Source: a virus. From it: a stretch of DNA of 64,000 bases. A model generated the notes under the pieces. The model worked only from the letters and a program-made list of their open reading frames with translations, was not told where the DNA came from and did not search any database. The stretch lies in UHGV virus genome UHGV-0468246. The stretch is one strand, 5' to 3'. The position numbers and the translations under genes were made by a program. Shown here one piece after another: positions 1,988 through 63,503 of this stretch; position 1 is the stretch's first letter, and every line of letters starts with the position of its first letter.

Positions 1988-2784
1988 ATCGGTATCCCTC
2001 CTCCTCGTATCACGCCCTCGCGGCGGCAGAAGCCACGGCACGGGCAGCTCTTGAACTTCGACGTGTCGCACTCGCATTCGTAGGGAAGGAGGCTCGGGCT
2101 TCCCGCGTCAAGCGCGTCCTTGACCTGCTGCCAACGGCGCAGCGTAGGCCCCATGTCCATCTGCTCCACCACGAACTCCTTGAAGCTGTGGGGCCTGTCC
2201 TTGCTTATGTAGAGCAGGATGCCGTACGGCAGGCCGGTCAGCATGAGGTACATGCCGAGTTGGAGGCGGTGGGCAGCGTCGGGGGCGGACAGCGACTTGA
2301 ACAGGTCGGCGGTCTTGGTCTTGATCTCGATGGGCACCGGCTCCTCCACGTCGGGGAATTTCAGGATGCTGTCGATTGAACCGGCGACGCGCAGGGCCTC
2401 GTCCGTCACCTTGGCCTCGTTCTCCACGAGGTCGGGAAGCCCCTCTATGTCGGTCATGTTCTCGAACCAGTGCTGAATCATGCCGTGCAGCGCGTGCCCG
2501 ATCTTGAACGTCACCTGAAGCTCCGTGTCGATCTTCTCCACCATCTGGTCGGCGTACTTCGGGTTCTTCTCGAAGTACAGGCGGCGCATGCACATAAGGC
2601 ACTCGCTCGACGGGTGGAGGTTATCGTAGTCCTTCGGCTTGTACAGGTCGTCAACCGTGTAGCTGCCGGAGTTCGGCACGAGCGCCAAGTACCGCTCGAC
2701 GTACGGCACGAGGCGGGCGAACCCGTCGGATGCCTTCGGCGGCGCTGACAGCGCGAACAGCTTTGAGCCTTCCCTAATCCTCAT
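1963..2784 (-). CDS. Cas4/RecB-like PD-(D/E)XK exonuclease with C-terminal cysteine cluster
   Basis: 273 aa. IEIKTK (ExK-like), N-terminal CxxC (ECLMCM) and C-terminal CECDx8CPCx3C cluster, typical of the Fe-S Cas4/AddB nuclease family. Confidence 0.5.
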   Translation of the reverse strand: MRIREGSKLFALSAPPKASDGFARLVPYVERYLALVPNSGSYTVDDLYKPKDYDNLHPSSECLMCMRRLYFEKNPKYADQMVEKIDTELQVTFKIGHALHGMIQHWFENMTDIEGLPDLVENEAKVTDEALRVAGSIDSILKFPDVEEPVPIEIKTKTADLFKSLSAPDAAHRLQLGMYLMLTGLPYGILLYISKDRPHSFKEFVVEQMDMGPTLRRWQQVKDALDAGSPSLLPYECECDTSKFKSCPCRGFCRREGVIRGGGIPIWQPPTTM

Positions 2785-3256
2785 GCACGCCCACCAGCTT
2801 CAGCATTCGCCCCAGCTCCATCGCCAAGACCTCCTCGCTCCAAGCGCCGTCGGCCATCGAGGCGACGAGCGGCAGCGCGGTCTTCTCCGATATTCCCAGC
2901 GACATCCGCACGCCCTTCTCGCACACGGCGTAGCTGTCCCAGTTCGCCTCGTTCGCCTCCCACATCTCGCGGAAGTCGCGATGCCGCATGATTCCCACCT
3001 CGCGCCCGCTCGACAGCTTGACCGCGACCATGGGCACGCGCATCTCGTTCATGGCCCACTCCGAGACGCTGCGCCACATCTTCGACGAGAGCGTGTACCG
3101 CTGCGTCTCGGTGTACTTGCAGTCCACGAGGAGGCGGGAGGTCTTCACGTCGCCTTTGTACCCCGTGAGGCGGCCAGACGCTTTAACGAGGTCGCCGCCT
3201 ATGCGCCCGGCCATCTCCTCTTCCCAGAGCTGCCAGCCCGGTTTGCCGTAAGACAT
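2774..3256 (-). CDS. hypothetical protein (possible nuclease)
   Basis: Start MSYGKPGWQ sits directly after a G9 run (sense) that acts as a Shine-Dalgarno-like leader. Confidence 0.45.
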   Translation of the reverse strand: MSYGKPGWQLWEEEMAGRIGGDLVKASGRLTGYKGDVKTSRLLVDCKYTETQRYTLSSKMWRSVSEWAMNEMRVPMVAVKLSSGREVGIMRHRDFREMWEANEANWDSYAVCEKGVRMSLGISEKTALPLVASMADGAWSEEVLAMELGRMLKLVGVHED

Positions 3257-4431: not shown

Positions 4432-7400
4432 ATTGCCTCTCTTTCTCTTTGCGGGACAACCGGCATGAAGTGCTCTAGCACGTAGTTGTCCTCGTCGTTT
4501 CTAAGCTGCTTCTTCACCTGCATCAGGAAGTAGCAGTCCTGATCGCCGCGTATGTGGCGCTCGATCATCTCCCACATGTCCGTGAAGCACGTCACGTCGA
4601 TCTGCGTGCCGTCCATGTCGCATTTGAGGAACGCCATCGGCCTGCCCTTCTTGGTGACGATTCGCTTCACGTCCTCCAACAGCACGAGCACGTTTGCGCA
4701 CGCCTCGTACGCAACGTCGTCAAGCTCGTCGGCGGAGCAGATCGAGGCCGCGTAAGGCTCGACGGCCCGCAGAACGTCCTCGTACGGGTCGAAGGTCAAG
4801 GGCATGCCTATGGCGCTCTTCTCCATCTCTATGATCTCGTCCTTGGTGAAGTCCGGCTGCTCCTGCGTGAACCGCACGGTCGAAGCGTCGCCGAACAGGT
4901 TGGCGCTCATGTCGTTGTTCTCGAACCTGTGCAGCAGGTCTTTCGCGTTGGGATGCCACTCGCGGAAGAACCTGTTCTTGACGAGGATGCGGACGACACC
5001 GTTGTTCGCGCCGCTGCGCGACTTGAAGTCCTCGAAGTCGGCGTAGGGCGCTCCCGCGAAGATGCTGCGCACGGCCTTCTCCCCTATGCCCTTCAGCGAG
5101 CCGATGCCGATGGCGATGGTGCGGTCGTCGAGGATGGCCCAGTCGTCCGATATGTTCGTCACCGACGGCATCGTGATCTGGAAGCCCTTCTTGCGGGCCT
5201 CGCGCATGTACTTCGGAAGCGCCTTCGGGTCAACCGTCTGGAAGCAGGCGCAGTAGAACTCGACGGGGTACATGAACTTCATCCACGCCGTCCAGAAGGT
5301 GATCTTCGCGTAGCTGTAGCTGTGGGCCTTGTTGAAGGAGTAGAGGCCCGATGCCTTGATCTGGTTGAAGATCACGGTCGCGTCCTCCGCCGATATGCCG
5401 CTGTGCCGCACGCACCCCTCAACGAACTTCGGCTCCTCCGCCTCCATCTCGCGCAGCTTCTTCTTGCCGATGATCGAGCGCATGTGGTCTGCCTCCAAAG
5501 GCGTGTAGCCCGCCACCTGCTGGCATATCGCCATGGACTGCTCTTGGTAGACGATGACCCCGTACGTGTCCTTCAGGATAGGCTCTAGCTGCGGCACGAC
5601 GTACGACACCTGCTCCCGCCCCAGCTTGCGGTTGATGAACACCTGCAACATCCCCGCGAGGATAACGCCGGGGCGGTAAAGCGCCACGATTGTTGACAAG
5701 TCCATGACGGAGCGCGGGGCGAGCTGCTGCGCGCAGGCCGTGATGTCCTTGCCGCCCATCTGGAAGATGCCCAGCGTGTCGCCCTCGTCGAACAGCCTCC
5801 ACACCCCTTCGGGGGCCTGTGCGTCTTCGAGGGCGCGGAAGTCGATGCGCACGCCGTGGCGCTGCTCGACCATCGTCCGCGCGTTCGCGAGGGTGGACAG
5901 GTTGCGAAGCCCCAGAAGGTCGGCCTTCAGGAAGCCCAGCGCCTCGATTGCCACCTTGTCGAACTGCGCCACGATGTCGCCCGTCTTCAGGGACAGGCGC
6001 GTGGGCATCGCGCTCGAAAGCGGTATGGGGGAGACGACGTAGCCAGCCGCGTGCTGCCCCCACTGGCGCGGCACGCCGATGAGGCGCGAGACGTACTTGA
6101 AGACGTTGGGGAAGCGCTGCATCATCGTGTCCAGCTCGCGGCGCTCCTTGTCGGACAGTATGTCGAGATGGTCGAGCCATTCCTTCGGGTTCTTCAGGGC
6201 CTTGTCGAACCGTTCCAAGGTCGCCTTGCAGCGCAGGGCCTCTTGGTGCGGGAGGCGGTAGTAGCGCGCCAAGTCCTCGAAGGCGTTCTTTATGCCGAAC
6301 GTCCCGACGGTGCCCACCGCGCACACGTGGTCTTTGCCGTACTTCTCGTTCAGGTAATCGACGACGCTGTGGCGACCGGCCACGTCGAAGTCGAGGTCGA
6401 TGTCGGGAAGGCTGTCCAGCCGCCCTTCGTTGAGGAAGCGCGAGAAGATCAGGCCGCGCCCCATCGGGTCAACTTCGGTAATGCCGGTTGCCCAGCAGAG
6501 TATGGAGGCGGCGCACGACCCGCGCCCCGGCCCGACCTCCACGCCGTGCTCCTTCGCCCAGCGCGTGTAGTCCGAGACGATCAGGAAGTAGTCCGCCAGA
6601 CCGTTGTCAACGATGATCGGGAACTCGTTCTCCGCCACGTCCTTCAGGTACGGCACGAGCCGCGCCTTGTCGCCGCCCCTGTACTTGATCTTGTGGGGGT
6701 CGTCGTCGGGCAGCACCTCGCACCCACCGGCCTTCTCGAACAGCCCCTTCGCCGTGAGGTACTTCAGGTACTCCCCGCTGTCGTCCCATCCCTCCGGCAG
6801 GGGGAACTTCGGAACCTTGTGGGAGCGGTCGAGGTCGTATTCCTCGATCATCGAGAGAAGGTGGTCTACGCCGTCGAAGCAGCGCTCCAAGTCCTCGTCG
6901 CCGATGTAGGCGAGGCGCTGGCGCACCTCGGCCTCGTCCATCATGTAGTAGTCCTGCTTCATGTGCATGTGCGTCTCGTCGTAGTGCTTGCCCATGTTGC
7001 AGCCGAGCATGACGTTCTGCAAGTCGCAGTCCTGCGGGGTGACGTAATGGCTGTCGATTGCGTAGATCGTGCGGATGCCGTGCCGCTTCGCGAAGTCGAG
7101 CAGCCACATGTTGACGCTGCGCTGCTCCGGCTCGCTGTTCGTGTGAATCTCGATGAAGAACTCGTCGAAGATGGCCCGGAACCGCTCGGTGAACTCCAAC
7201 GCCATCTTCTCGTCGTCGGCCTTCGCGGCCCTCGACAGGGCACCGGCGAGGCATGCGGAGCCGCATATAACGCCCTCGCGGCGCTCTCCCAAGTCCTCCC
7301 ACAGCGCGTTGGTGTACGCGTCCTTCCCTTCCTCGTGCAGCCAAGCCTTCGACGAGATGTCCCAGAGGTTGTGAAGCCCCTCCAAGTTGCGCGCCCAAAG

Positions 7401-7661
7401 GGTCAGGTGGAAGCCCTTCTTGTTCGTGTTGTGGTACACGCCGTCCTTCAGGTACAGCTCGCTTCCGAGTATGGGCACGATGCCGTTGCGCTTCGCCGCC
7501 TCGAACATGGCGTAATGGCCCACGCAATGGCCGTGGTCGGTTATCGCCTGATAACGGCTCCCGACCTCGACCGCGCGCCTGCACATGTCCTCCGGGTCGG
7601 CGAGGCCGTCTAGGAAGCTGTAGTAGCTGTGCGCGTGAAGGTTCGCGAACTGATGAGGCAT
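4428..7661 (-). CDS. dnaE: DNA polymerase III alpha subunit (DnaE-type, with PHP domain)
   Basis: 1077 aa. N-terminal PHP motif HAHSYYSFLDG...ITDHG, polymerase core and OB-fold region typical of PolIIIalpha. Confidence 0.9.
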   Translation of the reverse strand: MPHQFANLHAHSYYSFLDGLADPEDMCRRAVEVGSRYQAITDHGHCVGHYAMFEAAKRNGIVPILGSELYLKDGVYHNTNKKGFHLTLWARNLEGLHNLWDISSKAWLHEEGKDAYTNALWEDLGERREGVICGSACLAGALSRAAKADDEKMALEFTERFRAIFDEFFIEIHTNSEPEQRSVNMWLLDFAKRHGIRTIYAIDSHYVTPQDCDLQNVMLGCNMGKHYDETHMHMKQDYYMMDEAEVRQRLAYIGDEDLERCFDGVDHLLSMIEEYDLDRSHKVPKFPLPEGWDDSGEYLKYLTAKGLFEKAGGCEVLPDDDPHKIKYRGGDKARLVPYLKDVAENEFPIIVDNGLADYFLIVSDYTRWAKEHGVEVGPGRGSCAASILCWATGITEVDPMGRGLIFSRFLNEGRLDSLPDIDLDFDVAGRHSVVDYLNEKYGKDHVCAVGTVGTFGIKNAFEDLARYYRLPHQEALRCKATLERFDKALKNPKEWLDHLDILSDKERRELDTMMQRFPNVFKYVSRLIGVPRQWGQHAAGYVVSPIPLSSAMPTRLSLKTGDIVAQFDKVAIEALGFLKADLLGLRNLSTLANARTMVEQRHGVRIDFRALEDAQAPEGVWRLFDEGDTLGIFQMGGKDITACAQQLAPRSVMDLSTIVALYRPGVILAGMLQVFINRKLGREQVSYVVPQLEPILKDTYGVIVYQEQSMAICQQVAGYTPLEADHMRSIIGKKKLREMEAEEPKFVEGCVRHSGISAEDATVIFNQIKASGLYSFNKAHSYSYAKITFWTAWMKFMYPVEFYCACFQTVDPKALPKYMREARKKGFQITMPSVTNISDDWAILDDRTIAIGIGSLKGIGEKAVRSIFAGAPYADFEDFKSRSGANNGVVRILVKNRFFREWHPNAKDLLHRFENNDMSANLFGDASTVRFTQEQPDFTKDEIIEMEKSAIGMPLTFDPYEDVLRAVEPYAASICSADELDDVAYEACANVLVLLEDVKRIVTKKGRPMAFLKCDMDGTQIDVTCFTDMWEMIERHIRGDQDCYFLMQVKKQLRNDEDNYVLEHFMPVVPQREREAM

Positions 7662-10900: not shown

Positions 10901-10950
10901 ATGTTAAAGAAAAAGTAAAGCAAGAATTAAGACAATAATGAAGATTATCG
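10901..10950 (-). promoter_or_regulatory. AT-rich island with TCTTAA(T/C)T repeats between helicase stop and primase
   Basis: Sense cattattGTCTTAATTCTTGCTTTACTTTTTCTTTAAC; same motif family as 9931, 15876, 18046 and 58095. Confidence 0.35.
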
Positions 10951-13296
10951 GATGGTGCGCGGGTTGCCGTTGTCGTCCCTCATGAGGTCGATGAGGGCTT
11001 GGTACTTCAGCTCCCATCGCAGCTTGTAGCCCATCCTCCCGTAACGTCGGGTCTTCAGCGTGACGAGCTTCATCACGCTTATGTTCTCCTCCTCCTCGGT
11101 GCACCCCAGCGCCCAGATAACGTCCGCAAGCTGCTCGACAACCGACGAGTGCGCGATGTCCTGCGCGGTGCCTATGCCGTCCTTCGCGTTCTTAACGCCC
11201 TCTCGCGTCATCTGGTGGAGCAGCAGCACCGGCATCTTCTGGTTGTCCGAAGGCGACGCTATGAGGTTCTTCAGCGTGTAGATGCAGTCAGCCGTCTGCT
11301 CGTAAAGCGACTGAATCTTCGGGTTCTTCTTCACGAACTGAAGCTGGTCGATCACGACGAAGTTGCATCCGCACATCTTGGCGTTCTGGATGAGGGCGCT
11401 CGGCGTGCGCTCCGGCATGGGAGGCTGGTCGATGACGAGCTTTCCGGGCAGGCCGCCTATCTCGTCGCGCGCCCTGTCGAGGGCCTGAACGTAGCGCGGC
11501 ATCTCGATGCCCTTCAGGAACTTATCGACGGGAACCACGATCTGATCGCGGTTGACGTGCAGAAGCTCCGTGCGCCGCCCGATGTCGTAGGGGTCTAGCT
11601 CCAAGCTGGCGAAGTAGACGTTCCACCCTTGCCGCGCCGCCTCCAAGGCGGTCTTGGCGGCGAACCACGTGTTGTGCGTCACGATGTAATCGTCCGTCAG
11701 GTAAAGATGCTCCGGGTCGTCAACCATGATGCATTGCATCTCCGTGTCGAAGCCCAAGTCCTCGACATCGACTATCGAGACGTAGCGGTGAAGGAACTTG
11801 CGATTCGCAACGGCATCGTGCGCGCGCTCGCGACATTCGTGCTTGCCGGATGACGTGATGCTTTCGGCGGTCATCACCGACACAACCCATTCGTCCGACT
11901 TACCGGCACGGCGTTTCATTCGCGCCCGCGCGCACATTCCCAGCGAGCGGCACAACGACACGACATCATCAGCAAGCCTCTTTGAAGCCGTCGAGTAGGT
12001 CTTGCCTCCGTTGCCCATCATGCACCCGTCCGTGTCCATAAGGCCGCGAAGCAGGTCAAAACGCTGCTCTGCCGATGCTCCAAGGTAGTCGGCTGGAATG
12101 AACTTCTCATAAGATTTCACGTTCAGCCCAAGATCGACGACCGCGCTTGAAAGCGGGTTCATGTTCCACTTCGGCAGGTACGATATTCCATAAGAGCAGT
12201 TATCGGCGTTGACCTTCTTGACAGCGTAGTCTTCGCCCAGTCTCTCGCAAAGACTGTTCACCACATCGTCCTCGACGCTCGAAAACGCAAGCGAGCCTCC
12301 GGGAACCTGTGATAGGCATCCGTCGCCGATGAGCACGCCGAGCACGTAGGGGTCGATTGGAAGCTCCTTGCGCGACATCTCAACGGCATCATTGACCGGC
12401 ACCCTCCAACGATACGCCTTGCCGCTCATCAGGCCACGCGCGATCATCTCGCCGAGCGTCATGGTGCGCTCCGAAACGCAAGGAATGCCGTTCGCCTTCG
12501 TCTTGTACGCCGTCGTCCACAAATGGTCGATGCAGCAATCGGCATGTCGCCCGTCGGCAAGATGCACCCGGTACGCACGCTTTTTGCCCTGCGGGTACAC
12601 TCCTATAACCCGTGCAAGCGTGCCTCGGCGCGTTCGCACCTTGTCGCCTACGCGAATCTCGCCCATCGGCTTGAACCCATGCTCCGTGAGAACCTTCGAG
12701 TAAAGCGGCTGGGCCTTGCCCTTGCCCGTCGGGGCGACGAGAACCGCAAGCTCGCCGGGCTTGATGCCGCCCGTCTCCACGTTCAGCTCCTCGAAGGGGT
12801 ACGGCGCGCCGACCTCGGCCAGCTTCGCGTTCGCCATCTTCTTGTACAGCTCCATGCTCTCGCCGTCGCCGTACACGATCTTCTGCTGCCTCGGCGTTAC
12901 GTTGTCAACGATCACGGACAGGGTGTCGCGCAGCATCTTCACCTTCTGCTCCGCGTCAAGCCCCATGTTCTCAACGCCCATGCGCAGCGCGTCGGTAAGC
13001 TGGAACTCGCAGTACTGGTCTTTGAGCTTCTTCGACAGGTACGACGGCGCGGCACCTGCCGCCCCCTGCGTCAGCGCGTCGTAGTCGGGGAACCGCTCGC
13101 GCAGCACGTCGAGCGTGGGCGCTCCCCTCATGGCCGCGAAGTTCAGGAAGTAGTCGCTGGCGAAGCTGTACATCTCCGCCATCTTCGGGTCGGCGAACTG
13201 CGACGCGTCGATGCCCGACTGGTAGTAGACCATGAGGGCGTTCGGGTCGGTCAAGGTCGCGGCGATCTCCGTCTCTACGTCGAGGGCCATTACCAT
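10945..13296 (-). CDS. dnaB: replicative DnaB-like helicase, interrupted at the P-loop by an intein
   Basis: DnaB N-domain, then Walker A APTGKGK|[intein]|TWFAAK...; extein junction restores GKGKT; downstream RecA-like motor domain. RBS GGGAGGA precedes ATG 13296. Confidence 0.85.
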   Translation of the reverse strand: MVMALDVETEIAATLTDPNALMVYYQSGIDASQFADPKMAEMYSFASDYFLNFAAMRGAPTLDVLRERFPDYDALTQGAAGAAPSYLSKKLKDQYCEFQLTDALRMGVENMGLDAEQKVKMLRDTLSVIVDNVTPRQQKIVYGDGESMELYKKMANAKLAEVGAPYPFEELNVETGGIKPGELAVLVAPTGKGKAQPLYSKVLTEHGFKPMGEIRVGDKVRTRRGTLARVIGVYPQGKKRAYRVHLADGRHADCCIDHLWTTAYKTKANGIPCVSERTMTLGEMIARGLMSGKAYRWRVPVNDAVEMSRKELPIDPYVLGVLIGDGCLSQVPGGSLAFSSVEDDVVNSLCERLGEDYAVKKVNADNCSYGISYLPKWNMNPLSSAVVDLGLNVKSYEKFIPADYLGASAEQRFDLLRGLMDTDGCMMGNGGKTYSTASKRLADDVVSLCRSLGMCARARMKRRAGKSDEWVVSVMTAESITSSGKHECRERAHDAVANRKFLHRYVSIVDVEDLGFDTEMQCIMVDDPEHLYLTDDYIVTHNTWFAAKTALEAARQGWNVYFASLELDPYDIGRRTELLHVNRDQIVVPVDKFLKGIEMPRYVQALDRARDEIGGLPGKLVIDQPPMPERTPSALIQNAKMCGCNFVVIDQLQFVKKNPKIQSLYEQTADCIYTLKNLIASPSDNQKMPVLLLHQMTREGVKNAKDGIGTAQDIAHSSVVEQLADVIWALGCTEEEENISVMKLVTLKTRRYGRMGYKLRWELKYQALIDLMRDDNGNPRTIR
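11671..12714 (-). mobile_element. intein (Ala1 ... THN / Thr+1; class-3-like) with LAGLIDADG homing endonuclease, inside dnaB
   Basis: Starts AQPLYSKVLTEHGFKPMGEI, ends DDYIVTHN|T. Block-B DHLW, block-F Cys (EMQCIMV). LAGLIDADG motifs LGVLIGDGC and LLRGLMDTDGC. Local GC is lower than the flanks. Confidence 0.75.
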
Positions 13297-16258: not shown

Positions 16259-18019
16259 TTAAAAGCCGAGTAAGTATTCCATGTCGTTCATCATATCATT
16301 CTCGCCAGCCGCTTCATACTCGCCTATGCCCATCTCCTGCGCCAGCGCCTTGCGGCCCGCCATGGTCTCCTCTATGCGCTCCTCGATTGTGTCGCGCGTC
16401 ACGAAGCGGTATATGGTCACGCAGTCGTGCTTGGAGCTGATGCGGTGGATGCGGTCGCTGCGCTGCTGGTAGCGCGAATGCAGCGGCGGCGTGTCGTAGT
16501 GGAGCAGGTAGCGCCCCTCCGGAAGGTCTATGCCCTCGCGCCCAGCGTCGGACATGAGCATGAGGTTGTAGGTGCTCCCCTCTCGGAAAGACCGCTCGAT
16601 CACGCCGCGCTGCGCGTCCGTCTGCCCTCCCATGTACATGAGCGGGCGGTAGCGCTCCAAGTGCTTCGACAGCGGTATGAGGCAGTTGTGCGTGTGCTGG
16701 GCGAACACCACCATCTTCTCGCCGCCTCCCATGATCTGGTCTACCAGCTCCTCGGTCGCCTTCAGCTTCTCGCTGTTCTTAGACCCCGCAAGCTCCGGCG
16801 CGTGGCGCTGCACTATCCGGCGAATCTCGCGCAGCTGCTCGTCCCAGAACGGGTTGTCGCCTTCGTAGCGCCACACGTCCTCCATCAGAAGAACCTCCGG
16901 CATCCTGCACACGCGCTGAAGCATGAGCATGAACAGCGAGCGCTGCTTCTCGTCCCGGTCTACGCTGCCGCCGTACGCGGCGATCTCGTCGTACAGGGCG
17001 CGCTCCGGCGGCGACAGCTCCAAGTCAAGCACGATCTCCTGACGCTTGGGGAACTCCGCCGCTATCTCCGGGTTGGTCTTCTCCGCCATGAACACGCGGG
17101 GAGCCGAAAGCAGCCCCATAACGTCGAGGTTCTGGAAGCCGAGGTAGCGGTTCCACATGTCGCGCTCGCCGTTGCCGTACGTGAAGTAGTGCTCGAAGTC
17201 CTTCACGGTGCCGTAGATCGAGGCATCGAGGATGCGCCATTCGTTGTAGTAGTCCTCCGGGCTTTTCTCCAACGGCGTGGCGGTCAGGCCGCACTTGAAC
17301 CTGATGTCGAGCGTCTTTTCCAGCTTCTTGAACTTCTGGTGGCGGGGCCGCGCTCGGCTCTTCAACCGCTGAACCTCGTCGTACACGAAGAAAAGGTGCT
17401 TCCCGCGCAGGGCGCGCTCTATGAAGTTCCAGTCCTTCGTGTTGGTTCGGTCGTAGTTGACGACCCATATGTCGGAATCGTCGGTGTTGTACCACGCTTG
17501 GCGCTTCGCGGGCTTCGCGTTGCGGTTGACCGTGCCGACCGTCAGGCTCGTCGCCTTCTCCAACCACGGCACCCACTGCTTGACGAGCGGGGCCGGGCAG
17601 AACACCACGATCTTATCGACGGTGCCACGGTCGAACTCGCGCACGGCGAGCATCGTCCCCATGGCCGTCTTCCCCGTCCCGCACGAGCATATGAGCATGG
17701 TGTTGGGAACTCCGTCGAGCGCGTGGCCGCATCTGTTCTGAAACCTCTTCAGCTCGAACGGGAGCGTGAGGGACGGAGATTCGATGGGCGATTCGTCGCG
17801 CACCTGCCGCAAGCGCTCCGCCGCCCGCTCCGTGAACATGACCTCCATCGTCCTCGCCATGGTCTGGCACAGCTCGACGATGCGGTCGGAGTTCTTCAGC
17901 AGATGGTCGCGGGCGAGTATCCCGCTGTGGACGAACGGCATCAGCGCCGCCTCGTCGCCGTTGATCTTGAACTGCCCTCGGAACTCCTCGGACAGGTCAA
18001 CGCAGACCGTCTCTTTCAA
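16259..18019 (-). CDS. SNF2/Rad54-family helicase
   Basis: Helicase motifs I (CSCGTGKTAMG), II (VYDEVQ), III (TATPLEKS), VI (QQRSDRIHRIS); TTG start after an AAGGGAGATGGAGG RBS. Confidence 0.8.
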   Translation of the reverse strand: MKETVCVDLSEEFRGQFKINGDEAALMPFVHSGILARDHLLKNSDRIVELCQTMARTMEVMFTERAAERLRQVRDESPIESPSLTLPFELKRFQNRCGHALDGVPNTMLICSCGTGKTAMGTMLAVREFDRGTVDKIVVFCPAPLVKQWVPWLEKATSLTVGTVNRNAKPAKRQAWYNTDDSDIWVVNYDRTNTKDWNFIERALRGKHLFFVYDEVQRLKSRARPRHQKFKKLEKTLDIRFKCGLTATPLEKSPEDYYNEWRILDASIYGTVKDFEHYFTYGNGERDMWNRYLGFQNLDVMGLLSAPRVFMAEKTNPEIAAEFPKRQEIVLDLELSPPERALYDEIAAYGGSVDRDEKQRSLFMLMLQRVCRMPEVLLMEDVWRYEGDNPFWDEQLREIRRIVQRHAPELAGSKNSEKLKATEELVDQIMGGGEKMVVFAQHTHNCLIPLSKHLERYRPLMYMGGQTDAQRGVIERSFREGSTYNLMLMSDAGREGIDLPEGRYLLHYDTPPLHSRYQQRSDRIHRISSKHDCVTIYRFVTRDTIEERIEETMAGRKALAQEMGIGEYEAAGENDMMNDMEYLLGF

Positions 18020-48027: not shown

Positions 48028-48717
48028 TTAGATCGCAGGCTCGACGAACATGCCCTCCTCCGCCTGCTTCTCGCCCGTGATTATCACGTCAAGCTCGTCG
48101 GCGTCTATCATGAGATGCAGCTTGATCTTCTCGATGAACGTGGGGTTCACGCGGTCGATGTAGTAGAACTCGCCGCGCACCTTGAACGAGAACTGCTTGA
48201 ACACCGTCACCAAATCGTCGTCCCACGGAGTGCCCTTGCTGTCGTTGTTCGTGGTGTTCGATAGCGTCGCCATGTTAGGCTCTATGTTCACGTACGGGTT
48301 GTCCCGCAGGCACTGGCGGTACTTCGGGTCGATTCCGATTCCGCTCACGATGCAGTCGGCGAGGATGGCACCCTCGACGGGGGAGTTCGCGTACACGTCG
48401 ATGGTGACCCTGCCGCTGAAAACGTAGGCCGCGACATCGACCCTGCCGCCGGTGCTCTTGTCGGTCACCATGACCCACTCGTTCGGGGCGGCTGGCTGGA
48501 AGTCCTCGTTCACGTAGCCCACGCGGACGTAGGGCCACGCCTCGGCCACGATGGGGTAGTCCGATTCGACCTTCAGGTCTTTGTAGCCGTGGACGGCCAC
48601 CATCTCGGGGGATTGCAGGAACTTCCTGATGCTGTCGGTCGCAGCCGTAAGGCAGCTGTAGAAGTACCCCACGTGCTTCGGCTCGTGCCATACCATGTGC
48701 CCGTCGTTACTCATCAA
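48028..48717 (-). CDS. neck/tail-completion region protein (hypothetical)
   Basis: 229-aa track ORF upstream of the sheath gene. Confidence 0.4.
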   Translation of the reverse strand: MMSNDGHMVWHEPKHVGYFYSCLTAATDSIRKFLQSPEMVAVHGYKDLKVESDYPIVAEAWPYVRVGYVNEDFQPAAPNEWVMVTDKSTGGRVDVAAYVFSGRVTIDVYANSPVEGAILADCIVSGIGIDPKYRQCLRDNPYVNIEPNMATLSNTTNNDSKGTPWDDDLVTVFKQFSFKVRGEFYYIDRVNPTFIEKIKLHLMIDADELDVIITGEKQAEEGMFVEPAI

Positions 48718-50326
48718 TCCACTCCATCATCCCGCCGACGAAGGCGTAGTCTATGTCCTCGCTGTGCATCGCTATCGCGTCGTCTATCGCGTCGGCGATG
48801 AACTGCACGGGGCCGTGGCCCGGATGCACCCAGCTCCTCGATTGGCGCGTCTCCGGCATAAGCTCGCCGTCCTGACCGCGCACCCAGTACGTCTTCTCGC
48901 CCTTGCGCCACTGGTTGATGTTCGTCACCTTGCGGAACACGAGCTGGCCGCCGATCACCATGGGGACGGTGTTGTGCGTGACTATGTAATCGTTCGTGAC
49001 GTACAACCCGTCCGCGCTATCGACGAGGATGCAACGGCACTCCTCGCGTCCGGAAAAGGAAACGCTCTTGAATCTCCTGCACCAACACTTTGCGCTCTGA
49101 TGCGCAACGTTGTCAAGATAGCGCTTCAGCTTCTTTTCGTAAGGGGCGAGGAACGGCACAACGCCGTTGTCGAACCTCATCTCGACGATGTACGCCACAC
49201 CGTTTCGATATTTGCCGCTGCGCCTGTCCTCGTGAATATACGCATGGCCTCCGAGCGAAAGCGCTAGGCTCCGCACCTGCACCGCGAGGTCGCGGCACAC
49301 CGTGGTGTACTGGCATATCGCACCGCGAGCGGCGCACGAGCCGTCCGTGTCCATGAGGCCCTGCAATAGAAGGACGCGATCTTCGACGCACGAAAGCATG
49401 TACTCTTCTGGGATGGTCTTGCCGTATGCGTCATGCCCCCATAGTCCGAGCGACCTGAACGCATCTATGAGCGGCGATGTCGAATTGCCGCCGCGCCCCC
49501 AACGCGACGGCGCGGCATTGTAGCCGGGAGCGCCGCACGCCAACGCTATTCTAGCTCCATCTTCAGCGACCGCATGGGGGGTGACGCACTCCGGCACGAA
49601 CCTCATGAACGTGTCGATGCCAGCCCCGTCATAACAGCAGAAGTACGGATACGGCCCCCGGAGGCATCCATCGCCTATCATCGCTCCGACAAAATATGGA
49701 TGCAATGGAAGATCGCGCTTGTCGAACATGATCTTCGGGGCAAGACGGATGCGCCAGCTATCGCCGTGCGTCCTCCCTATCCTTCCCATGAAGTCTTCTA
49801 ACGGCATCACCCGATCATCGACCCATGCCCCGTTGCGCCTGACAGACCATAAGTGCTCTTTCGTGCATCTTGTATGGCCGCCGTCCGTGAACTCGACATC
49901 GTAAACGTCGCACATGCCCTGATCGTAAACATCGATCACCTTCACAGGCGCTCCGTCCGAGCCGATGACCAAGCATCCCGGCTCTATCTCCCCCATCGGC
50001 TTGAAGCCGTCGGGCGTGAGCACCGGCTCCGAGAGCGGCTGCGCCTTCCCGTACAGGCTCTTCATCGGGAACGTCTGGAAGCCGTTCTCTTGGTAGATGA
50101 GGTAGTGGTGCTCCGGCACGATGCCGACACCCGCGTAGCCAGCCGCGTAGTCGGGCGACGGGTAGAACGCCATCCTGCCGCCCTTGAACGTGGCGAATAT
50201 GCCGCTTCCGTACTCCGCCGCGAGGTCGCATGCGGTCTCCGAAACCATGTCGAGCACGCGGTTCGCCAGACTTGTCCCGGTTAGGGGCATGTCGGCGTAA
50301 ACGTCCTCGATCACTCGCTCGTCCAC
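48707..50326 (-). CDS. virion neck/tail-terminator region protein interrupted by an intein
   Basis: N-extein 94 aa (…FPMKSLYGK) and C-extein 87 aa (TVPMVIGGQLVF…) flank a 358-aa intein. Confidence 0.6.
   Translation of the reverse strand: MDERVIEDVYADMPLTGTSLANRVLDMVSETACDLAAEYGSGIFATFKGGRMAFYPSPDYAAGYAGVGIVPEHHYLIYQENGFQTFPMKSLYGKAQPLSEPVLTPDGFKPMGEIEPGCLVIGSDGAPVKVIDVYDQGMCDVYDVEFTDGGHTRCTKEHLWSVRRNGAWVDDRVMPLEDFMGRIGRTHGDSWRIRLAPKIMFDKRDLPLHPYFVGAMIGDGCLRGPYPYFCCYDGAGIDTFMRFVPECVTPHAVAEDGARIALACGAPGYNAAPSRWGRGGNSTSPLIDAFRSLGLWGHDAYGKTIPEEYMLSCVEDRVLLLQGLMDTDGSCAARGAICQYTTVCRDLAVQVRSLALSLGGHAYIHEDRRSGKYRNGVAYIVEMRFDNGVVPFLAPYEKKLKRYLDNVAHQSAKCWCRRFKSVSFSGREECRCILVDSADGLYVTNDYIVTHNTVPMVIGGQLVFRKVTNINQWRKGEKTYWVRGQDGELMPETRQSRSWVHPGHGPVQFIADAIDDAIAMHSEDIDYAFVGGMMEWIDE
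48971..50044 (-). mobile_element. intein (Ala1 ... THN / Thr+1; class-3-like) with LAGLIDADG homing endonuclease, paralog of the dnaB intein
   Basis: Starts AQPLSEPVLTPDGFKPMGEI, ends NDYIVTHN|T. EHLW and block-F Cys (EECRCILV). LAGLIDADG motifs FVGAMIGDGC and LLQGLMDTDGS. The boundary blocks align closely with the dnaB intein. Confidence 0.7.
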
Positions 50327-59487: not shown

Positions 59488-60399
59488 TTACTCGCCGAAG
59501 ACGCAGGCGGTAAAATCGAACGTGTATTCCGTGCCGTCCGTCTTGCTCTCGGCATCCTCGGCGCTCGCGTACAGCGTCGCCGTGAACTTCTTCACATCCT
59601 TCTGAATGGCGGCGACGAGAATGATGGCTCCCGGCCCGTCGCCCGTCTGGCCGAACACAAGCGTCTTCTCGCCGCTGCCGAGCGTCTGGCGGACGAACGC
59701 GGAGCCGTCAGCCGCCTTCATCTCGAACGCGGCGTAGTAGCCCGTTCTGTCCTCCTCTGCGGCGGAGAACTCCGTCCAGTCGGGAACGTGGTTGACGGTT
59801 CCACCGAAGACGACGTTCGTGCCTTCGACTCTCGCGGTGAGGCCGCTCGTCAGCTCGCCTAGGTTCTTACCGGCGAAGTTCGTTCCGGCGAAGTCCGTCT
59901 TCCCTATCGTCAGCGCCGCTGGCTGCGGCGGCTCCGCGACGAGGGCTTCCGGCGCTTCTGAAACGGTTATCTTCGCCTGACCGACCGACATCAGCATGCA
60001 CACCGGGTTCCCGTCGCCGACCGTCAAGCGACCGTTGGCATCCGATTCGAGCAGCACGCGGCCTCCCGACTTCAACGTCGCCTCCGCCGCCTCCCAGTCA
60101 GCATCCTTGTCGATGACGGAGCGCGACACGTCCGCCATCGCCCCGCCTCCGAAGACGAGAACGCCAGCGCTGGGAACCTCCCAGACATTGTGCGTCCTGT
60201 ACGTCGAGAACAGCCCCAAGGGGCGCTCCGCCCCGGTTGACGGCCTCACCCCGTCAGGCCCCATGCAGGCGACCATGCCCGGCATGATGTCGTGCCTCGA
60301 AGGGTCAACGGGCCAATCTTGGAACGTCGCCTGCGTCTTCGTGAACAATGGTTTCAGGGTTCGATGCTCCTGCGTTGCGAAATTTGACACTATAGCCAT
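59488..60399 (-). CDS. capsid-associated protein, larger paralog of 53440..53949
   Basis: 303 aa; N-terminus shared with the smaller paralog; predicted beta-rich. Confidence 0.4.
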   Translation of the reverse strand: MAIVSNFATQEHRTLKPLFTKTQATFQDWPVDPSRHDIMPGMVACMGPDGVRPSTGAERPLGLFSTYRTHNVWEVPSAGVLVFGGGAMADVSRSVIDKDADWEAAEATLKSGGRVLLESDANGRLTVGDGNPVCMLMSVGQAKITVSEAPEALVAEPPQPAALTIGKTDFAGTNFAGKNLGELTSGLTARVEGTNVVFGGTVNHVPDWTEFSAAEEDRTGYYAAFEMKAADGSAFVRQTLGSGEKTLVFGQTGDGPGAIILVAAIQKDVKKFTATLYASAEDAESKTDGTEYTFDFTACVFGE

Positions 60400-63300
60400 C
60401 TGCTTTCCTTTCCGATAACTCCGCCGCGCATCAATTCGTCAAGCGATGCGGAGTAAGAGGCGATCTTACCTCCGCTCGCAAGATCGTAGTCTATGCCCTC
60501 TGCGTACCCGGCATCGGCGAGCGCCGCGAGCACGGTGCCCTGATCGTCCGGAACGTCGAACAGGCGGGCCGCGACGCGGGCATCGTCGGTGTCCTCCGCG
60601 TACTCCTCCTCGGCATCTTCGGTCACCTCCGCGTCAGGCTCCTCCGCGTCGTCCAAGTCCTTGCGCAGCTCCTTGTTCTCCTGCGCCTCCTCCGTGTCGA
60701 TGTCGCCGAAGCCCTCGGCGTACTCGACGTACTCGCACACGTCGCAGTAGATGCCGTCGAAGTCTGGGCTTCCGCATATCGGGCACACGCGGTCGGAGTT
60801 CTGCATGTCCACCTCTTCGGGGATGCGCAGCTTGTTCACCATGTTGTCGGCCAGCTTGTAGTGACCGGCGATCTCTTGGAGGGCATCGGCGTAGAACTCC
60901 TCGTCGGCATCGGCGGCCTCCTCGACGGCGCTCCACACCTCTGCGGCAAGCTCGTCGTAGCTGTCGAAGGACAGGCCGAGGCTGTCGTACTCCTCGATGA
61001 AGTCGCTGGCGAAGCCGCTTGCGTCGTCTGCGGAGCCTTCCTTGCCCTCGCCGAACGGCTCGATGCCGAACCTCCTGCACGCGGCGTTCACCTTGTCGAT
61101 GACGGCCTGCCTGTCATCGGACGGTATCTCGACCTTGTTCCCGCGATAGCCCTTGCCGAGCGCGGCCTTCGCCGCAGCGGCGTGGTCTTTGTCCGAGATG
61201 TCCAGCTTCCAATCGCTCGGATTGTCGGTCGGAGTGTACGCATAGTCCGACTTGCTCTTCTCCGCCGCCGTCACCCGAAGCAGCGTCCGCGCCTCGTCGT
61301 ATACCTCATCGTTCATGTCGGTGTGCCTCCATTGCATCGTCCCGAACATATGGTCGGCAAGCGTCCCGTCTGCTCCGCTGCCCACGTAGCTCTCCACCAC
61401 GTCGTTCAATTTCTTGTCGAAGATGTAGTCGTAGTTCTCCGTGTTCTCGAAGTCAGACCACCTCGCATAGCCGTACAGCTCGCCGCCGTACATCTGCCTG
61501 TTGATGCCGTCGAGGTACCAGTTGCACCCGCCAACGCCGTAGCCCCAATGGTCGGAGCCGCGAATAACGCCGTCAGGGAAGTACCAGTACTCGGAGCCTG
61601 ATTCGCTCGTGTAGTCGGGAGCGCCCTGCGGCCTGTCCTCCACCTCCGCGAAGTTCGCCTCGGTCTCTATGTAGAAGTTGTCGGGGCCGAACTCCCTTTC
61701 CTTCGCGGCGACCTTGGCGGTCTTCGCCTCGGCCTCCAACGCCTGCACGGTGGCCGTCGGGTCTGCCGGGTCGTACACCCAGCTCTCCTCGAAGAACGCT
61801 ATGCCGTTGCATATCTCGAACGCGAGAACGCCGTCGAACTCGCGCCCCTTCTGCTTGATGTGGTTGCAGAACTGGGCGGGCTGCTCTGCCACGTTCCCGC
61901 ACACCGAGCACGTCGTGGTCTCGCAGTTATGAACGGCATACCCCTCGGCAATATAACTATGATCTTCCTCAACTTCAAAGTTATACACCATCCCCGTGTA
62001 CGGAAGAACCCTTATGCGGTCTATGCGCCTCCAAGTGCCTTGTTCGTCAACATAGCACATCGCCATTTTCTTCTGTTCTTCGGAGCGATCTCCATAAGAG
62101 ACGTAACGTGTGTGTTTGGCAATATCGGATATTCTCTCGGAAGACCTAGCGATTGGTTTGGACATCTTGATGCCAAGTTGAGTGCATATTGAAAATATCT
62201 GATATGCAAGGTCTTTTGAAACGGTGGAATATGCGACCCTGTGATCATCAATGTAATGTCCGTCTCCATTAAGATACGCTTCGACAAGATCGCCAAGACA
62301 CTCATCATCCCAGCGCATTGCTTCGTCGCTTATTCTTTTCCCATGGGAATACTTCCCACCATGCTCTAACATCATATTTGCAAGTTCCGGTGAATTGCAC
62401 CTTATCGTAGCAGCTCCACGCTTGATATATGGCCCAACCGCCTTATATCCGAGTTCAGAGCAAAGCGCCATGACTTCATCGTGATAATCAGTCTCGCTAT
62501 CGCAAAACGTCCACTCGACAAACGCTGGTGCGCCAACACCAATGTTCAGCTTTTTGTCATATCCGAAGTTTCCCTCTGCGAGATAGTATCCAAGGAGCCT
62601 TGCGAACACGCGATTCCCGCCACGCGATGTGCGAACGGGCTTCGGGTCGAGAACGTAATCTCCAACCTCCAAGTCACTCGCAATGACCCATCCTTCAAAA
62701 TCGGGCTGGTATCCATGGCCGTCAACGCCGTTCTTCGCGGCCTCGCGCACATGCGCCGCAAGGCTTCTATGGCTCTTGAACGAGCGCCCGCAAATGCAAG
62801 AATGCTCTGCATTGTCGCCATCATGAGCTATCCTGCTTTCACGTATGGTTCGCATCGCGTCGTTCTTCATTCGACGCACCCAGACGGGATGCTCGTCGGT
62901 AAGAACCATCGGACGTTTGCTTCCATAAGATCGCACCTCATACACGATTCCGGAATGCAAGCTCGCCATCGTGTCGGCAACCCTTCGCACGTTCCCAAGA
63001 TGCGTTATAACCTCATCGCCGACCGCAACGTCTTCGATGTTTTTGACGGTGCCGTTTGACATAGTTATATGCGTTCCGGGAACAAAGCAGTTGAGGCCCA
63101 TGGAAACGGTGTCGATGTCGCCGCTGCGGATGAGCGCGCACAGCCTCGGGAACGTAACCTCGTCCATCTCCATCAGAATCTCTATCCAACGGTCTTCCGG
63201 GTCTTCGTCGTGGTACACCGCGTCGATGATGTAGCCGCGCGCCCTGTCGAGGTTCGTGTTCGAGTGGTTCACGTACACCGGCTTGCCGACGAACGTGCGG

Positions 63301-63503
63301 TACGCGGTCTTCAGCTCCTCGTGCGGCAGCATGTCGAAGTTCAGGTTCGGAACGTCTGCGGTGCATGCGCGGACGGAGACGTACAGGAACCCGTCGCCGC
63401 GATCATCGTACTCGAACGAGCCGAGGGCCTTGCGCGCGGCGACGCGCCCGGTCGTCCCGAAGCTCGTTCCGATTATGGAGCAGTTGGAGAACTTAACGAA
63501 CAT
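60390..63503 (-). CDS. intein-containing head-module protein; N-extein resembles a prohead serine protease, and the long acidic C-extein carries two zinc ribbons (possible protease-scaffold fusion)
   Basis: N-extein VYVNHSNTNLDRARGYIIDA resembles the S78 protease His motif; the intein is inserted after VSMGLN; C-extein CSVCGN…FCNH and CPICGSPDFDGIYCDVC. Confidence 0.5.
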   Translation of the reverse strand: MFVKFSNCSIIGTSFGTTGRVAARKALGSFEYDDRGDGFLYVSVRACTADVPNLNFDMLPHEELKTAYRTFVGKPVYVNHSNTNLDRARGYIIDAVYHDEDPEDRWIEILMEMDEVTFPRLCALIRSGDIDTVSMGLNCFVPGTHITMSNGTVKNIEDVAVGDEVITHLGNVRRVADTMASLHSGIVYEVRSYGSKRPMVLTDEHPVWVRRMKNDAMRTIRESRIAHDGDNAEHSCICGRSFKSHRSLAAHVREAAKNGVDGHGYQPDFEGWVIASDLEVGDYVLDPKPVRTSRGGNRVFARLLGYYLAEGNFGYDKKLNIGVGAPAFVEWTFCDSETDYHDEVMALCSELGYKAVGPYIKRGAATIRCNSPELANMMLEHGGKYSHGKRISDEAMRWDDECLGDLVEAYLNGDGHYIDDHRVAYSTVSKDLAYQIFSICTQLGIKMSKPIARSSERISDIAKHTRYVSYGDRSEEQKKMAMCYVDEQGTWRRIDRIRVLPYTGMVYNFEVEEDHSYIAEGYAVHNCETTTCSVCGNVAEQPAQFCNHIKQKGREFDGVLAFEICNGIAFFEESWVYDPADPTATVQALEAEAKTAKVAAKEREFGPDNFYIETEANFAEVEDRPQGAPDYTSESGSEYWYFPDGVIRGSDHWGYGVGGCNWYLDGINRQMYGGELYGYARWSDFENTENYDYIFDKKLNDVVESYVGSGADGTLADHMFGTMQWRHTDMNDEVYDEARTLLRVTAAEKSKSDYAYTPTDNPSDWKLDISDKDHAAAAKAALGKGYRGNKVEIPSDDRQAVIDKVNAACRRFGIEPFGEGKEGSADDASGFASDFIEEYDSLGLSFDSYDELAAEVWSAVEEAADADEEFYADALQEIAGHYKLADNMVNKLRIPEEVDMQNSDRVCPICGSPDFDGIYCDVCEYVEYAEGFGDIDTEEAQENKELRKDLDDAEEPDAEVTEDAEEEYAEDTDDARVAARLFDVPDDQGTVLAALADAGYAEGIDYDLASGGKIASYSASLDELMRGGVIGKESRWL
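61926..63089 (-). mobile_element. intein (Cys1 ... HN / Cys+1) with LAGLIDADG homing endonuclease and an internal C2H2-like zinc-finger insert
   Basis: Starts CFVPGTHITMSNG, ends GYAVHN|C. LAGLIDADG motifs LLGYYLAEGNF and LVEAYLNGDG. Insert HSCICGRSFKSHRSLAAH. 61.95-62.9 kb has clearly lower GC than the flanks. Confidence 0.75.

Follow-up and report, generated by a model that had tools for sequence, protein, structure and literature searches.

Analysis of a 64,000-nucleotide stretch of the virus genome UHGV-0468246 (hereafter the window) indicates that two of its genes are interrupted by mobile class 3 inteins, a reading that is given a probability of about 0.88. The first (intein 1) lies in LE23_120, encoding a putative DnaB-like replicative helicase, and the second (intein 2) in LE23_82, a virion gene whose spliced product probably belongs to the HK97 gp10-like tail completion proteins; both inserts would have to be removed for a working helicase and a working tail completion protein to be made. 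The two inteins were acquired independently. The coordinates of all features are collected in Table 1.

Regarding the source of the DNA, positions 10945..13296 of the window are 99.9% identical and positions 48707..50326 are 100% identical, in reverse complement, to MW679026.1, the 111,961-bp record of Eggerthella phage LE2-3 (host Eggerthella lenta DSM 2243; source activated sludge, Ireland), a cultured isolate infecting a human-gut Actinobacterium. The record names the two host genes "DNA helicase" (LE23_120) and "PhoH family protein" (LE23_82) and has no intein annotated, and a full-text literature search found no paper, within the library searched, that deals with Eggerthella phages and inteins together.

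The insert in LE23_120 is flanked by APTGKGK and TWFAAK and lies directly behind the Lys of the Walker A motif; its removal restores the Walker A sequence GKGKT. The Pfam DnaB_C profile is matched at positions 33-251 with the insert present (E-value 1.4e-10) and at positions 3-251 of 255 with the insert removed (E 3.3e-17), the latter match being continuous through the junction. In GenBank and in metagenomic orthologues the gene starts at 13290 (MALDV), two codons downstream of the start of the open reading frame (ORF), and its neighbours are genes for an IstB-like loader and a primase. LE23_120 is thus recognisable as a DnaB-like replicative helicase, whose Walker A motif is predicted to be intact once the protein is spliced.

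Class 3 inteins are defined by a non-nucleophilic residue 1, a Thr or Ser at position +1 and the Trp-Cys-Thr (WCT) triplet, made up of Trp at block B:12, Cys at block F:4 and Thr at block G:5; splicing is started by the block F Cys, which is absolutely required, and proceeds through a branched thioester intermediate at block F (Tori et al., 2010; PMC2807308). The two inteins have in common Ala1, His64, Trp66, the block F Cys, the ending THN and Thr+1, residue 1 thus being none of Cys, Ser and Thr in either, and the WCT triplet consists of Trp66, Cys328 and Thr346 in intein 1 and of Trp66, Cys338 and Thr356 in intein 2. Intein 1 begins with AQPLYSKV, has the motifs DHLW, LGVLIGDGC, LLRGLMDTDGC and EMQCIMV, and ends in VTHN before Thr, while intein 2 begins with AQPLSEPV, has EHLW and ECRCILV, and likewise ends in VTHN before Thr. 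A preliminary description, made from the letters of the window alone, had reported the 348-amino-acid (aa) insert between APTGKGK and TWFAAK with recovery of GKGKT, the Ala1, Trp, Cys, THN and Thr+1 of intein 1 together with its two LAGLIDADG motifs, and a second intein with similar boundary blocks that splits the neck-region structural gene 48707..50326 after SLYGK, at a site that mimics GK·T (the dot marks the insertion point here and below); all of these observations hold, the second site being a GK·T outside a P-loop in a virion gene of the neck, probably for tail completion.

The same residues are conserved in the wider family, which was retrieved by database searches (210 relatives with complete boundaries) and compared in a 211-row alignment. 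The block B His is found in 211/211 rows, the Trp in 207/211 and the block F Cys in 211/211, and the Thr, His and Asn of block G are each found in 211/211, with Ala1 in 163/211. Among the 210 retrieved relatives, Thr stands at +1 in 189 and Ser in 20, and the -1 position is taken by Lys in 191 and by Arg in 10. Regarding the acidic residues of the LAGLIDADG motifs, the first motif has Asp in 193 of the 211 rows and Glu in 9, and the second has Asp in 209.

The LAGLIDADG_3 model of Pfam is above cut-off in both inserts (E 1e-8 and 7e-7), a match to Hom_end (E 4e-4, 20.9 bits) lies slightly under its 21.1-bit cut-off, and the nearest solved endonuclease domain is that of PI-SceI (E 8e-5). Both inteins are thus predicted to carry a two-motif LAGLIDADG homing endonuclease with intact acidic residues, the motifs containing GDG and DTDG. 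As Pfam reports LAGLIDADG-type models only, the splicing domain is documented by matches to solved inteins and by the family alignment. When the two splicing halves were joined to a mini-intein query and compared by phmmer with solved inteins in the PDB, matches were obtained to gp41-1 (E 3e-11) and to MchDnaB1 of M. chimaera (6rix; 1e-6) and MsmDnaB1 of M. smegmatis (6bs8; 6e-6), the last two of which have been assigned to class 3 (PMC7664689); the His, Trp, Cys and THN of the splicing halves are in register with 6rix and 6bs8. A check with Pfam alone would have overlooked this class 3 splicing domain. Taken together, these features assign both inserts to the class 3 (WCT) LAGLIDADG inteins, a known kind of element.

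Regarding the host gene of intein 2, spliced LE23_82 gives one uninterrupted match to the phrog_2819 profile that spans the junction. No PhoH domain of Pfam is matched by the precursor or by the spliced extein, and the identification of LE23_82 as a PhoH family protein is therefore rejected; PhoH proteins host many of the closest intein relatives, and the name in GenBank is due to this resemblance of the intein to inteins carried by PhoH proteins. Pfam gave zero matches with spliced LE23_82 and five spliced orthologues, PF04883 not being detected in LE23_82 itself. Clustering of the extein family at 50% leaves 111 representatives, most of them 150-200 aa long, and the HK97-gp10_like model of Pfam is matched in 2 of 75 members. 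An AlphaFold2 model of the spliced protein, based on a 75-sequence alignment (predicted local distance difference test score 94), shows a long helix at the N-terminus, a region of beta structure and helices at the C-terminus; a Foldseek search with this model returned no match. The gene lies between those for the major capsid and the tail sheath, two genes upstream of the sheath gene, and its spliced product is probably a tail completion protein of the HK97 gp10 type. Intein 2 is inserted in the most conserved stretch of the family, in which M88, G93 and P97 are nearly invariant. Its GK·T site is not a Walker A motif, as there is no GxxxxGK and Met stands where Walker A has Gly.

Occupied and empty alleles of the DnaB site coexist in phages that are 99.7% identical, which makes the LE2-3 group a natural system for the study of intein mobility. 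An intein-free DnaB of 433 aa (P0136) is 100% identical to the spliced LE2-3 helicase, and two contigs (L010 and L011) align with intein-deleted LE2-3 in one 7,308-bp block of 99.7% identity, in which intein 1 is cleanly absent and the homing site is identical. Between these contigs and LE2-3 there are zero mismatches from -272 to +1276 around the DnaB junction (p approximately 0.03-0.045), which is weakly suggestive of recent gene conversion. More distant DnaB orthologues are intein-free at 80-85% identity, and three at about 45% identity have an intein at the same site.

Intein 2 is absent from 13 homologues of LE23_82, the closest of which is 98% identical in protein, and its site is occupied in seven phrog_2819 orthologues (P0016-P0021 and P0023). 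The 1,217-bp contig of this closest homologue (L005, logan ERR10101914) is 97% identical to spliced LE2-3, with 35 base differences, 9 of them packed into the 28 bp around the site of insertion (p = 7e-8); in this junction patch Thr+1 is changed to Val and a Val to Leu, the remaining changes being synonymous. Four more distant intein-free alleles (L006-L009, 82% identical) keep AAG·ACC GTC CC, as in LE2-3. It follows that the patch of L005 represents either a variant of the target site that is derived or a state outside the co-conversion tract. L005 could be an endonuclease-escape allele, or it could represent the pre-invasion state or the edge of a co-conversion tract.

Base composition and substitution patterns set the inteins apart from their hosts. 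Both class 3 inteins have a G+C content at third codon positions (GC3) of 0.73, compared with 0.86-0.93 in the exteins and seven other phage genes, and for the DnaB exteins in particular the values are 0.88-0.93. When LE2-3 was compared with contig L013, which carries a DnaB intein at 6481..7524 (11671..12714 in the window), the proportion of synonymous differences (pS) was 0.43 in the DnaB N-extein and 0.84, which is saturated and about twice the N-extein value, in the intein. The intein copies therefore predate the split of the host genes and the two histories differ, as recurrent homing out of a diverse pool would lead one to expect. In the same comparison the proportion of nonsynonymous differences (pN) was 0.05-0.08 in the splicing halves, far below pS, and 0.21 in the endonuclease domain against a pS of 0.78, which is consistent with both the splicing and the endonuclease functions being maintained.

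On the class 3 mechanism, each host gene would be translated as one precursor. Since Ala1 cannot act as a nucleophile, the peptide bond of Lys(-1) would be attacked by the Cys of block F (Cys328 or Cys338) with the help of the block B His and Trp; the N-extein would then be handed over onto the Thr+1 side chain, and cyclisation of the terminal Asn would release the intein and restore GK-T, yielding a helicase with its Walker A intact and an uninterrupted virion protein of 181 aa. In co-infection, alleles lacking the intein would be cleaved by the LAGLIDADG endonuclease, and their repair would bring in a copy of the intein.

A number of points weigh against the interpretation of the inserts as mobile class 3 inteins. 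Neither insert is reported by the HINT and intein models of Pfam at E <= 0.1, and with intein_Cterm of NCBIfam the score is 14.6 bits, under the cut-off of 15.6; the profile check proposed in the preliminary description was accordingly negative for HINT and positive for LAGLIDADG_3 and for the phmmer matches to solved inteins. The deep nodes of the family tree described below are poorly supported (73.5% for the eight-member phrog_2819 clade), and the mismatch-free tract at the DnaB junction is of marginal significance. Splicing, the branched intermediate at block F and cleavage by the endonuclease are predictions, the route of splicing being taken from the class 3 mechanism.

One or both inserts might instead be decayed inteins that do not splice or that carry a dead endonuclease and that would be tolerated as domains inside the host protein or be rescued in part, like the class 3 pseudo-intein Arth_1007 of Arthrobacter. 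Inteins often continue to splice after the death of their endonuclease, and decayed class 3 inteins exist (PMC3196547). Decay is nevertheless unlikely. Neither intein has lost a catalytic position, the splicing and endonuclease domains have a pN far below pS, and alleles that are nearly identical are found both empty and occupied, with patterns of mismatches centred on the points of insertion. Intein 1, moreover, splits the GK·T of Walker A in a helicase that is essential, and LE2-3, being a cultured phage, must make a working helicase.

Less likely still is an origin of intein 2 within the LE2-3 genome, by homing or transposition of intein 1 from DnaB into a site that mimics GK·T, as had been proposed in the preliminary description. 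The two belong to the same class 3 family, have near-identical terminal blocks (AQPL..VLT..GFKPMGEI and DYIVTHN·T) and an equal GC3, are both inserted at AAG·AC (Lys·Thr), and class 3 inteins of phages have been documented to switch exteins between sites that share a short motif (10.1101/2025.01.02.630785). However, the terminal blocks are family-wide and not peculiar to this pair, and the proteins are 33% identical over their full length by BLASTP (E 5e-46) and only 33-37% across comparisons, a level of similarity that each of them equally shows to hundreds of inteins of other phages; against intein 2, many inteins of other phages score higher than intein 1 (182 and 165 bits, compared with 148). 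The nucleotide-level comparison that the preliminary description had called for yielded similarity confined to the terminal blocks, so that there is no copy of recent date at the DNA level. Of the two target sites only the GGx-AAG·AC core is shared, 11 of 30 bases being equal within 15 bases on either side of the junction.

A neighbour-joining tree of 211 inteins (corrected p-distances, 200 bootstrap replicates) never groups the two, the smallest clade containing both LE2-3 class 3 inteins having at least 80 taxa in 200/200 replicates. Intein 2 groups with the intein of P0016 (98.5% bootstrap), then with that of P0017 (93.5%), and the clade of all eight inteins of the GK·T[IV]PM site, intein 2 included, is found in 73.5% of replicates. 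By global alignment its identity is 53% to P0016, 48% to P0017 and 37-44% to P0018-P0021 and P0023, and intein identity drops in step with extein identity among the phrog_2819 orthologues; relatives of intein 2 that are 45-53% identical occupy the same site in orthologues, while the nearest relatives of intein 1 are found in DnaB and SNF2. Intein 1 groups with the DnaB intein of L013 (75% identity, 98% bootstrap), and this pair groups with an intein in the SNF2-family helicase P0143 (100%). Intein 1 belongs to a DnaB/SNF2 lineage circulating in LE2-3-like phages and intein 2 to a lineage that resides in genes for tail completion proteins.

That the inserts are free-standing LAGLIDADG genes fused in frame, or intron ORFs removed in RNA, is extremely improbable even though only LAGLIDADG models are above cut-off in the Pfam scan, since HINT-type terminal blocks around the endonuclease match solved inteins, the reading frame is uninterrupted through both junctions with boundaries at codon limits and THN·T, and 210 relatives have the same architecture in unrelated proteins. 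On the evidence given, intragenomic duplication, decay and an intron or free-standing endonuclease are all rejected in favour of two independently acquired class 3 inteins.

Regarding the sites used by the family, both inteins fall in one large phage-borne clade (AQP...THN·T) that is mostly inserted at P-loop GK·T sites. About 165 of the 210 relatives occupy a GK·T/S site, their hosts including terminase, PhoH, DnaB and helicases of superfamilies 1 and 2, and 8 are in phrog_2819, while the remaining relatives include some at DxK·T/S and MRGR·T sites; the common denominator of these sites is thus a Lys/Arg·Thr/Ser junction. Within the lineage of LE2-3, a switch of extein between the P-loops of DnaB and SNF2 is supported. 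The SNF2-family helicase LE23_113 of LE2-3 has an empty Walker A site, whereas its 85%-identical orthologue P0143 (contigs L012 and L013) has an intein at the Walker A GTGK·T, and in contig L013 the SNF2 and the DnaB gene are both occupied. The P0143 intein is the closest known relative of intein 1, being 58% identical to it overall, 83-90% in the splicing blocks and 17-40% in parts of the endonuclease, a pattern of conserved splicing blocks and diverged endonuclease that is expected after retargeting. The DnaB/SNF2 pair thereby provides a clean example of class 3 retargeting between P-loops.

A broader interpretation is put forward tentatively, with the odds somewhat against it: a class 3 lineage may have moved out of nucleotide-binding enzymes and become a long-term resident of an HK97 gp10-like tail completion protein, a virion protein of low copy number that is not an enzyme, at the conserved GK·T[IV]PM, its placement being set by the junction and not by a P-loop, with a live arms race between endonuclease and target. 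If true, and taken with the DxK·T/S and RGR·T sites of the family, it would be the Lys/Arg·Thr/Ser junction that is carried between hosts, whether on account of the splicing chemistry or of an AAG·AC core read by the endonuclease, and clustered substitutions of the L005 type would represent a natural escape allele, or a pre-invasion state outside the co-conversion tract, in a human-gut phage population. Tail completion proteins of the LE23_82 type are probably a host not reported before for inteins: among the papers searched in the same library no report of an intein in a neck or tail-completion protein was found, and a survey found class 3 inteins in four host proteins only, with no tail completion protein among its 19 host types (10.1101/2025.01.02.630785). 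The tail-completion lineage would widen the hosts of class 3 inteins beyond nucleoside triphosphatases (NTPases) and nucleases. Knowledge of the splicing mechanism is left unchanged, and the findings are of interest to specialists in inteins, phage evolution and protein engineering.

Table 1. Features of the two intein-containing genes and related loci; positions refer to the window.
Feature	Position	Strand	Details
DnaB-like replicative helicase precursor LE23_120	10945..13296	minus	single 783-aa ORF; Pfam DnaB_C
DnaB N-extein	12715..13296	minus	ends ...VLVAPTGKGK (Walker A Lys = -1); protein identical in intein-free P0136
Intein 1, predicted class 3 with LAGLIDADG homing endonuclease domain	11671..12714	minus	348 aa, aa 195-542 of LE23_120
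Intein 1 block B DHLW	12517..12528	minus	His64 (B:10) 12523..12525; Trp66 (B:12) 12517..12519
Intein 1 first LAGLIDADG motif LGVLIGDGC	12316..12342	minus	
Intein 1 second LAGLIDADG motif LLRGLMDTDGC	12022..12054	minus	Pfam LAGLIDADG_3 E 1e-8
Intein 1 block F EMQCIMV	11722..11742	minus	Cys328 (F:4), predicted initiating nucleophile, 11731..11733
Intein 1 block G VTHN and Thr+1	11668..11682	minus	Thr346, His347, Asn348; Thr+1 11668..11670
DnaB C-extein	10945..11670	minus	TWFAAK... up to stop codon
SNF2-family helicase LE23_113	16262..18019	minus	empty Walker A site CGTGK·TAMG
LE23_82 precursor gene	48707..50326	minus	539 aa; spliced product 181 aa, phrog_2819
LE23_82 N-extein	50045..50326	minus	ends ...FPMKSLYGK
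Intein 2, predicted class 3 LAGLIDADG	48971..50044	minus	358 aa, aa 95-452 of LE23_82
Intein 2 residues		minus	His64 49853..49855; Trp66 49847..49849; Cys338 (F:4) 49031..49033; VTHN 48971..48982
Intein 2 LAGLIDADG motifs	49664..49690 and 49337..49369	minus	
LE23_82 C-extein	48707..48970	minus	Thr+1 first (TVPMVIGG...)
L005 mismatch patch	~48945..50049 with intein removed		bases ~473..500 of L005

Further mobile elements were observed in LE2-3 and its relatives. A third intein, at 61926..63089 on the minus strand of the window, lies in the ORF 60390..63503 (minus) of LE23_74, named "ferritin-like superfamily protein"; it is assigned to class 1 (Cys1 ... AVHN before Cys+1), has 388 aa and a LAGLIDADG domain, and scores slightly under the cut-offs of the Pfam models Hint, Hom_end_hint and Intein_splicing, with a GC3 of 0.52 against 0.86-0.89 in its exteins. 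No Pfam model matches its host protein in the spliced form. A fourth intein, outside the window, is found in the portal gene LE23_67 (MW679026.1 40373..41566; L003) and is also of class 1 (MRA before CHPAG ... FASHN before CLEV), being 26% identical to the intein of LE23_74. The 112-kb genome of LE2-3 thus has at least four inteins. Contig L012 has at 2129..2890 an additional 253-aa NUMOD4-type homing endonuclease-like gene between genes that are adjacent in L010, a further mobile-endonuclease polymorphism of this phage group.

Regarding known systems, class 3 inteins were originally seen in helicase-like proteins only, and a phage origin has been proposed for them (PMC2807308). The inteins of Bethlehem DnaB, MchDnaB1 and MsmDnaB1 have in common with those of LE2-3 the non-nucleophilic residue 1, the WCT triplet, the His-Asn end and Thr+1, and further resemble them in the LAGLIDADG domain, the helicase host and the phage setting. 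The preliminary description, which had mentioned a mycobacteriophage DnaB as the first case, needs correction in that this prototype, the DnaB intein of mycobacteriophage Bethlehem, has Pro1 after Gln-1 (PMC2807308), whereas residue 1 of the LE2-3 inteins is Ala and follows Lys-1. In sequence they resemble the solved class 3 inteins only slightly (E 1e-6), and the best match in the PDB is the class 1 cyanophage-like gp41-1, a DnaB-type helicase intein, together with its engineered WCT variant 6riz (3e-11). The model of LE23_82 is like HK97 gp10, lambda gpZ, SPP1 gp16.1 and 80alpha gp51 in its helix/beta/helix layout and in the neck position of its gene, but with 181 aa it is longer than the HK97 gp10-type tail completion proteins of about 110 aa.

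Extein switching by class 3 inteins of actinophages, from terminase to a Cas4 exonuclease, has been described, with shared nucleotide-binding motifs proposed as the connection (Gosselin et al., 2025; 10.1101/2025.01.02.630785). Intein 1 and its SNF2 relative resemble this case in being related class 3 inteins in non-homologous genes with a short motif at the junction; the switch in the LE2-3 lineage is between DnaB and SNF2, and not from DnaB to LE23_82. The Walker A Lys·Thr is the "classic" P-loop intein site in TerL1-a, PhoH, DnaB and SNF2 (Kelley et al., 2016; PMC5050341). Intein 1 has this classic placement, whereas intein 2 is at a K·T junction in a host without an NTPase fold.

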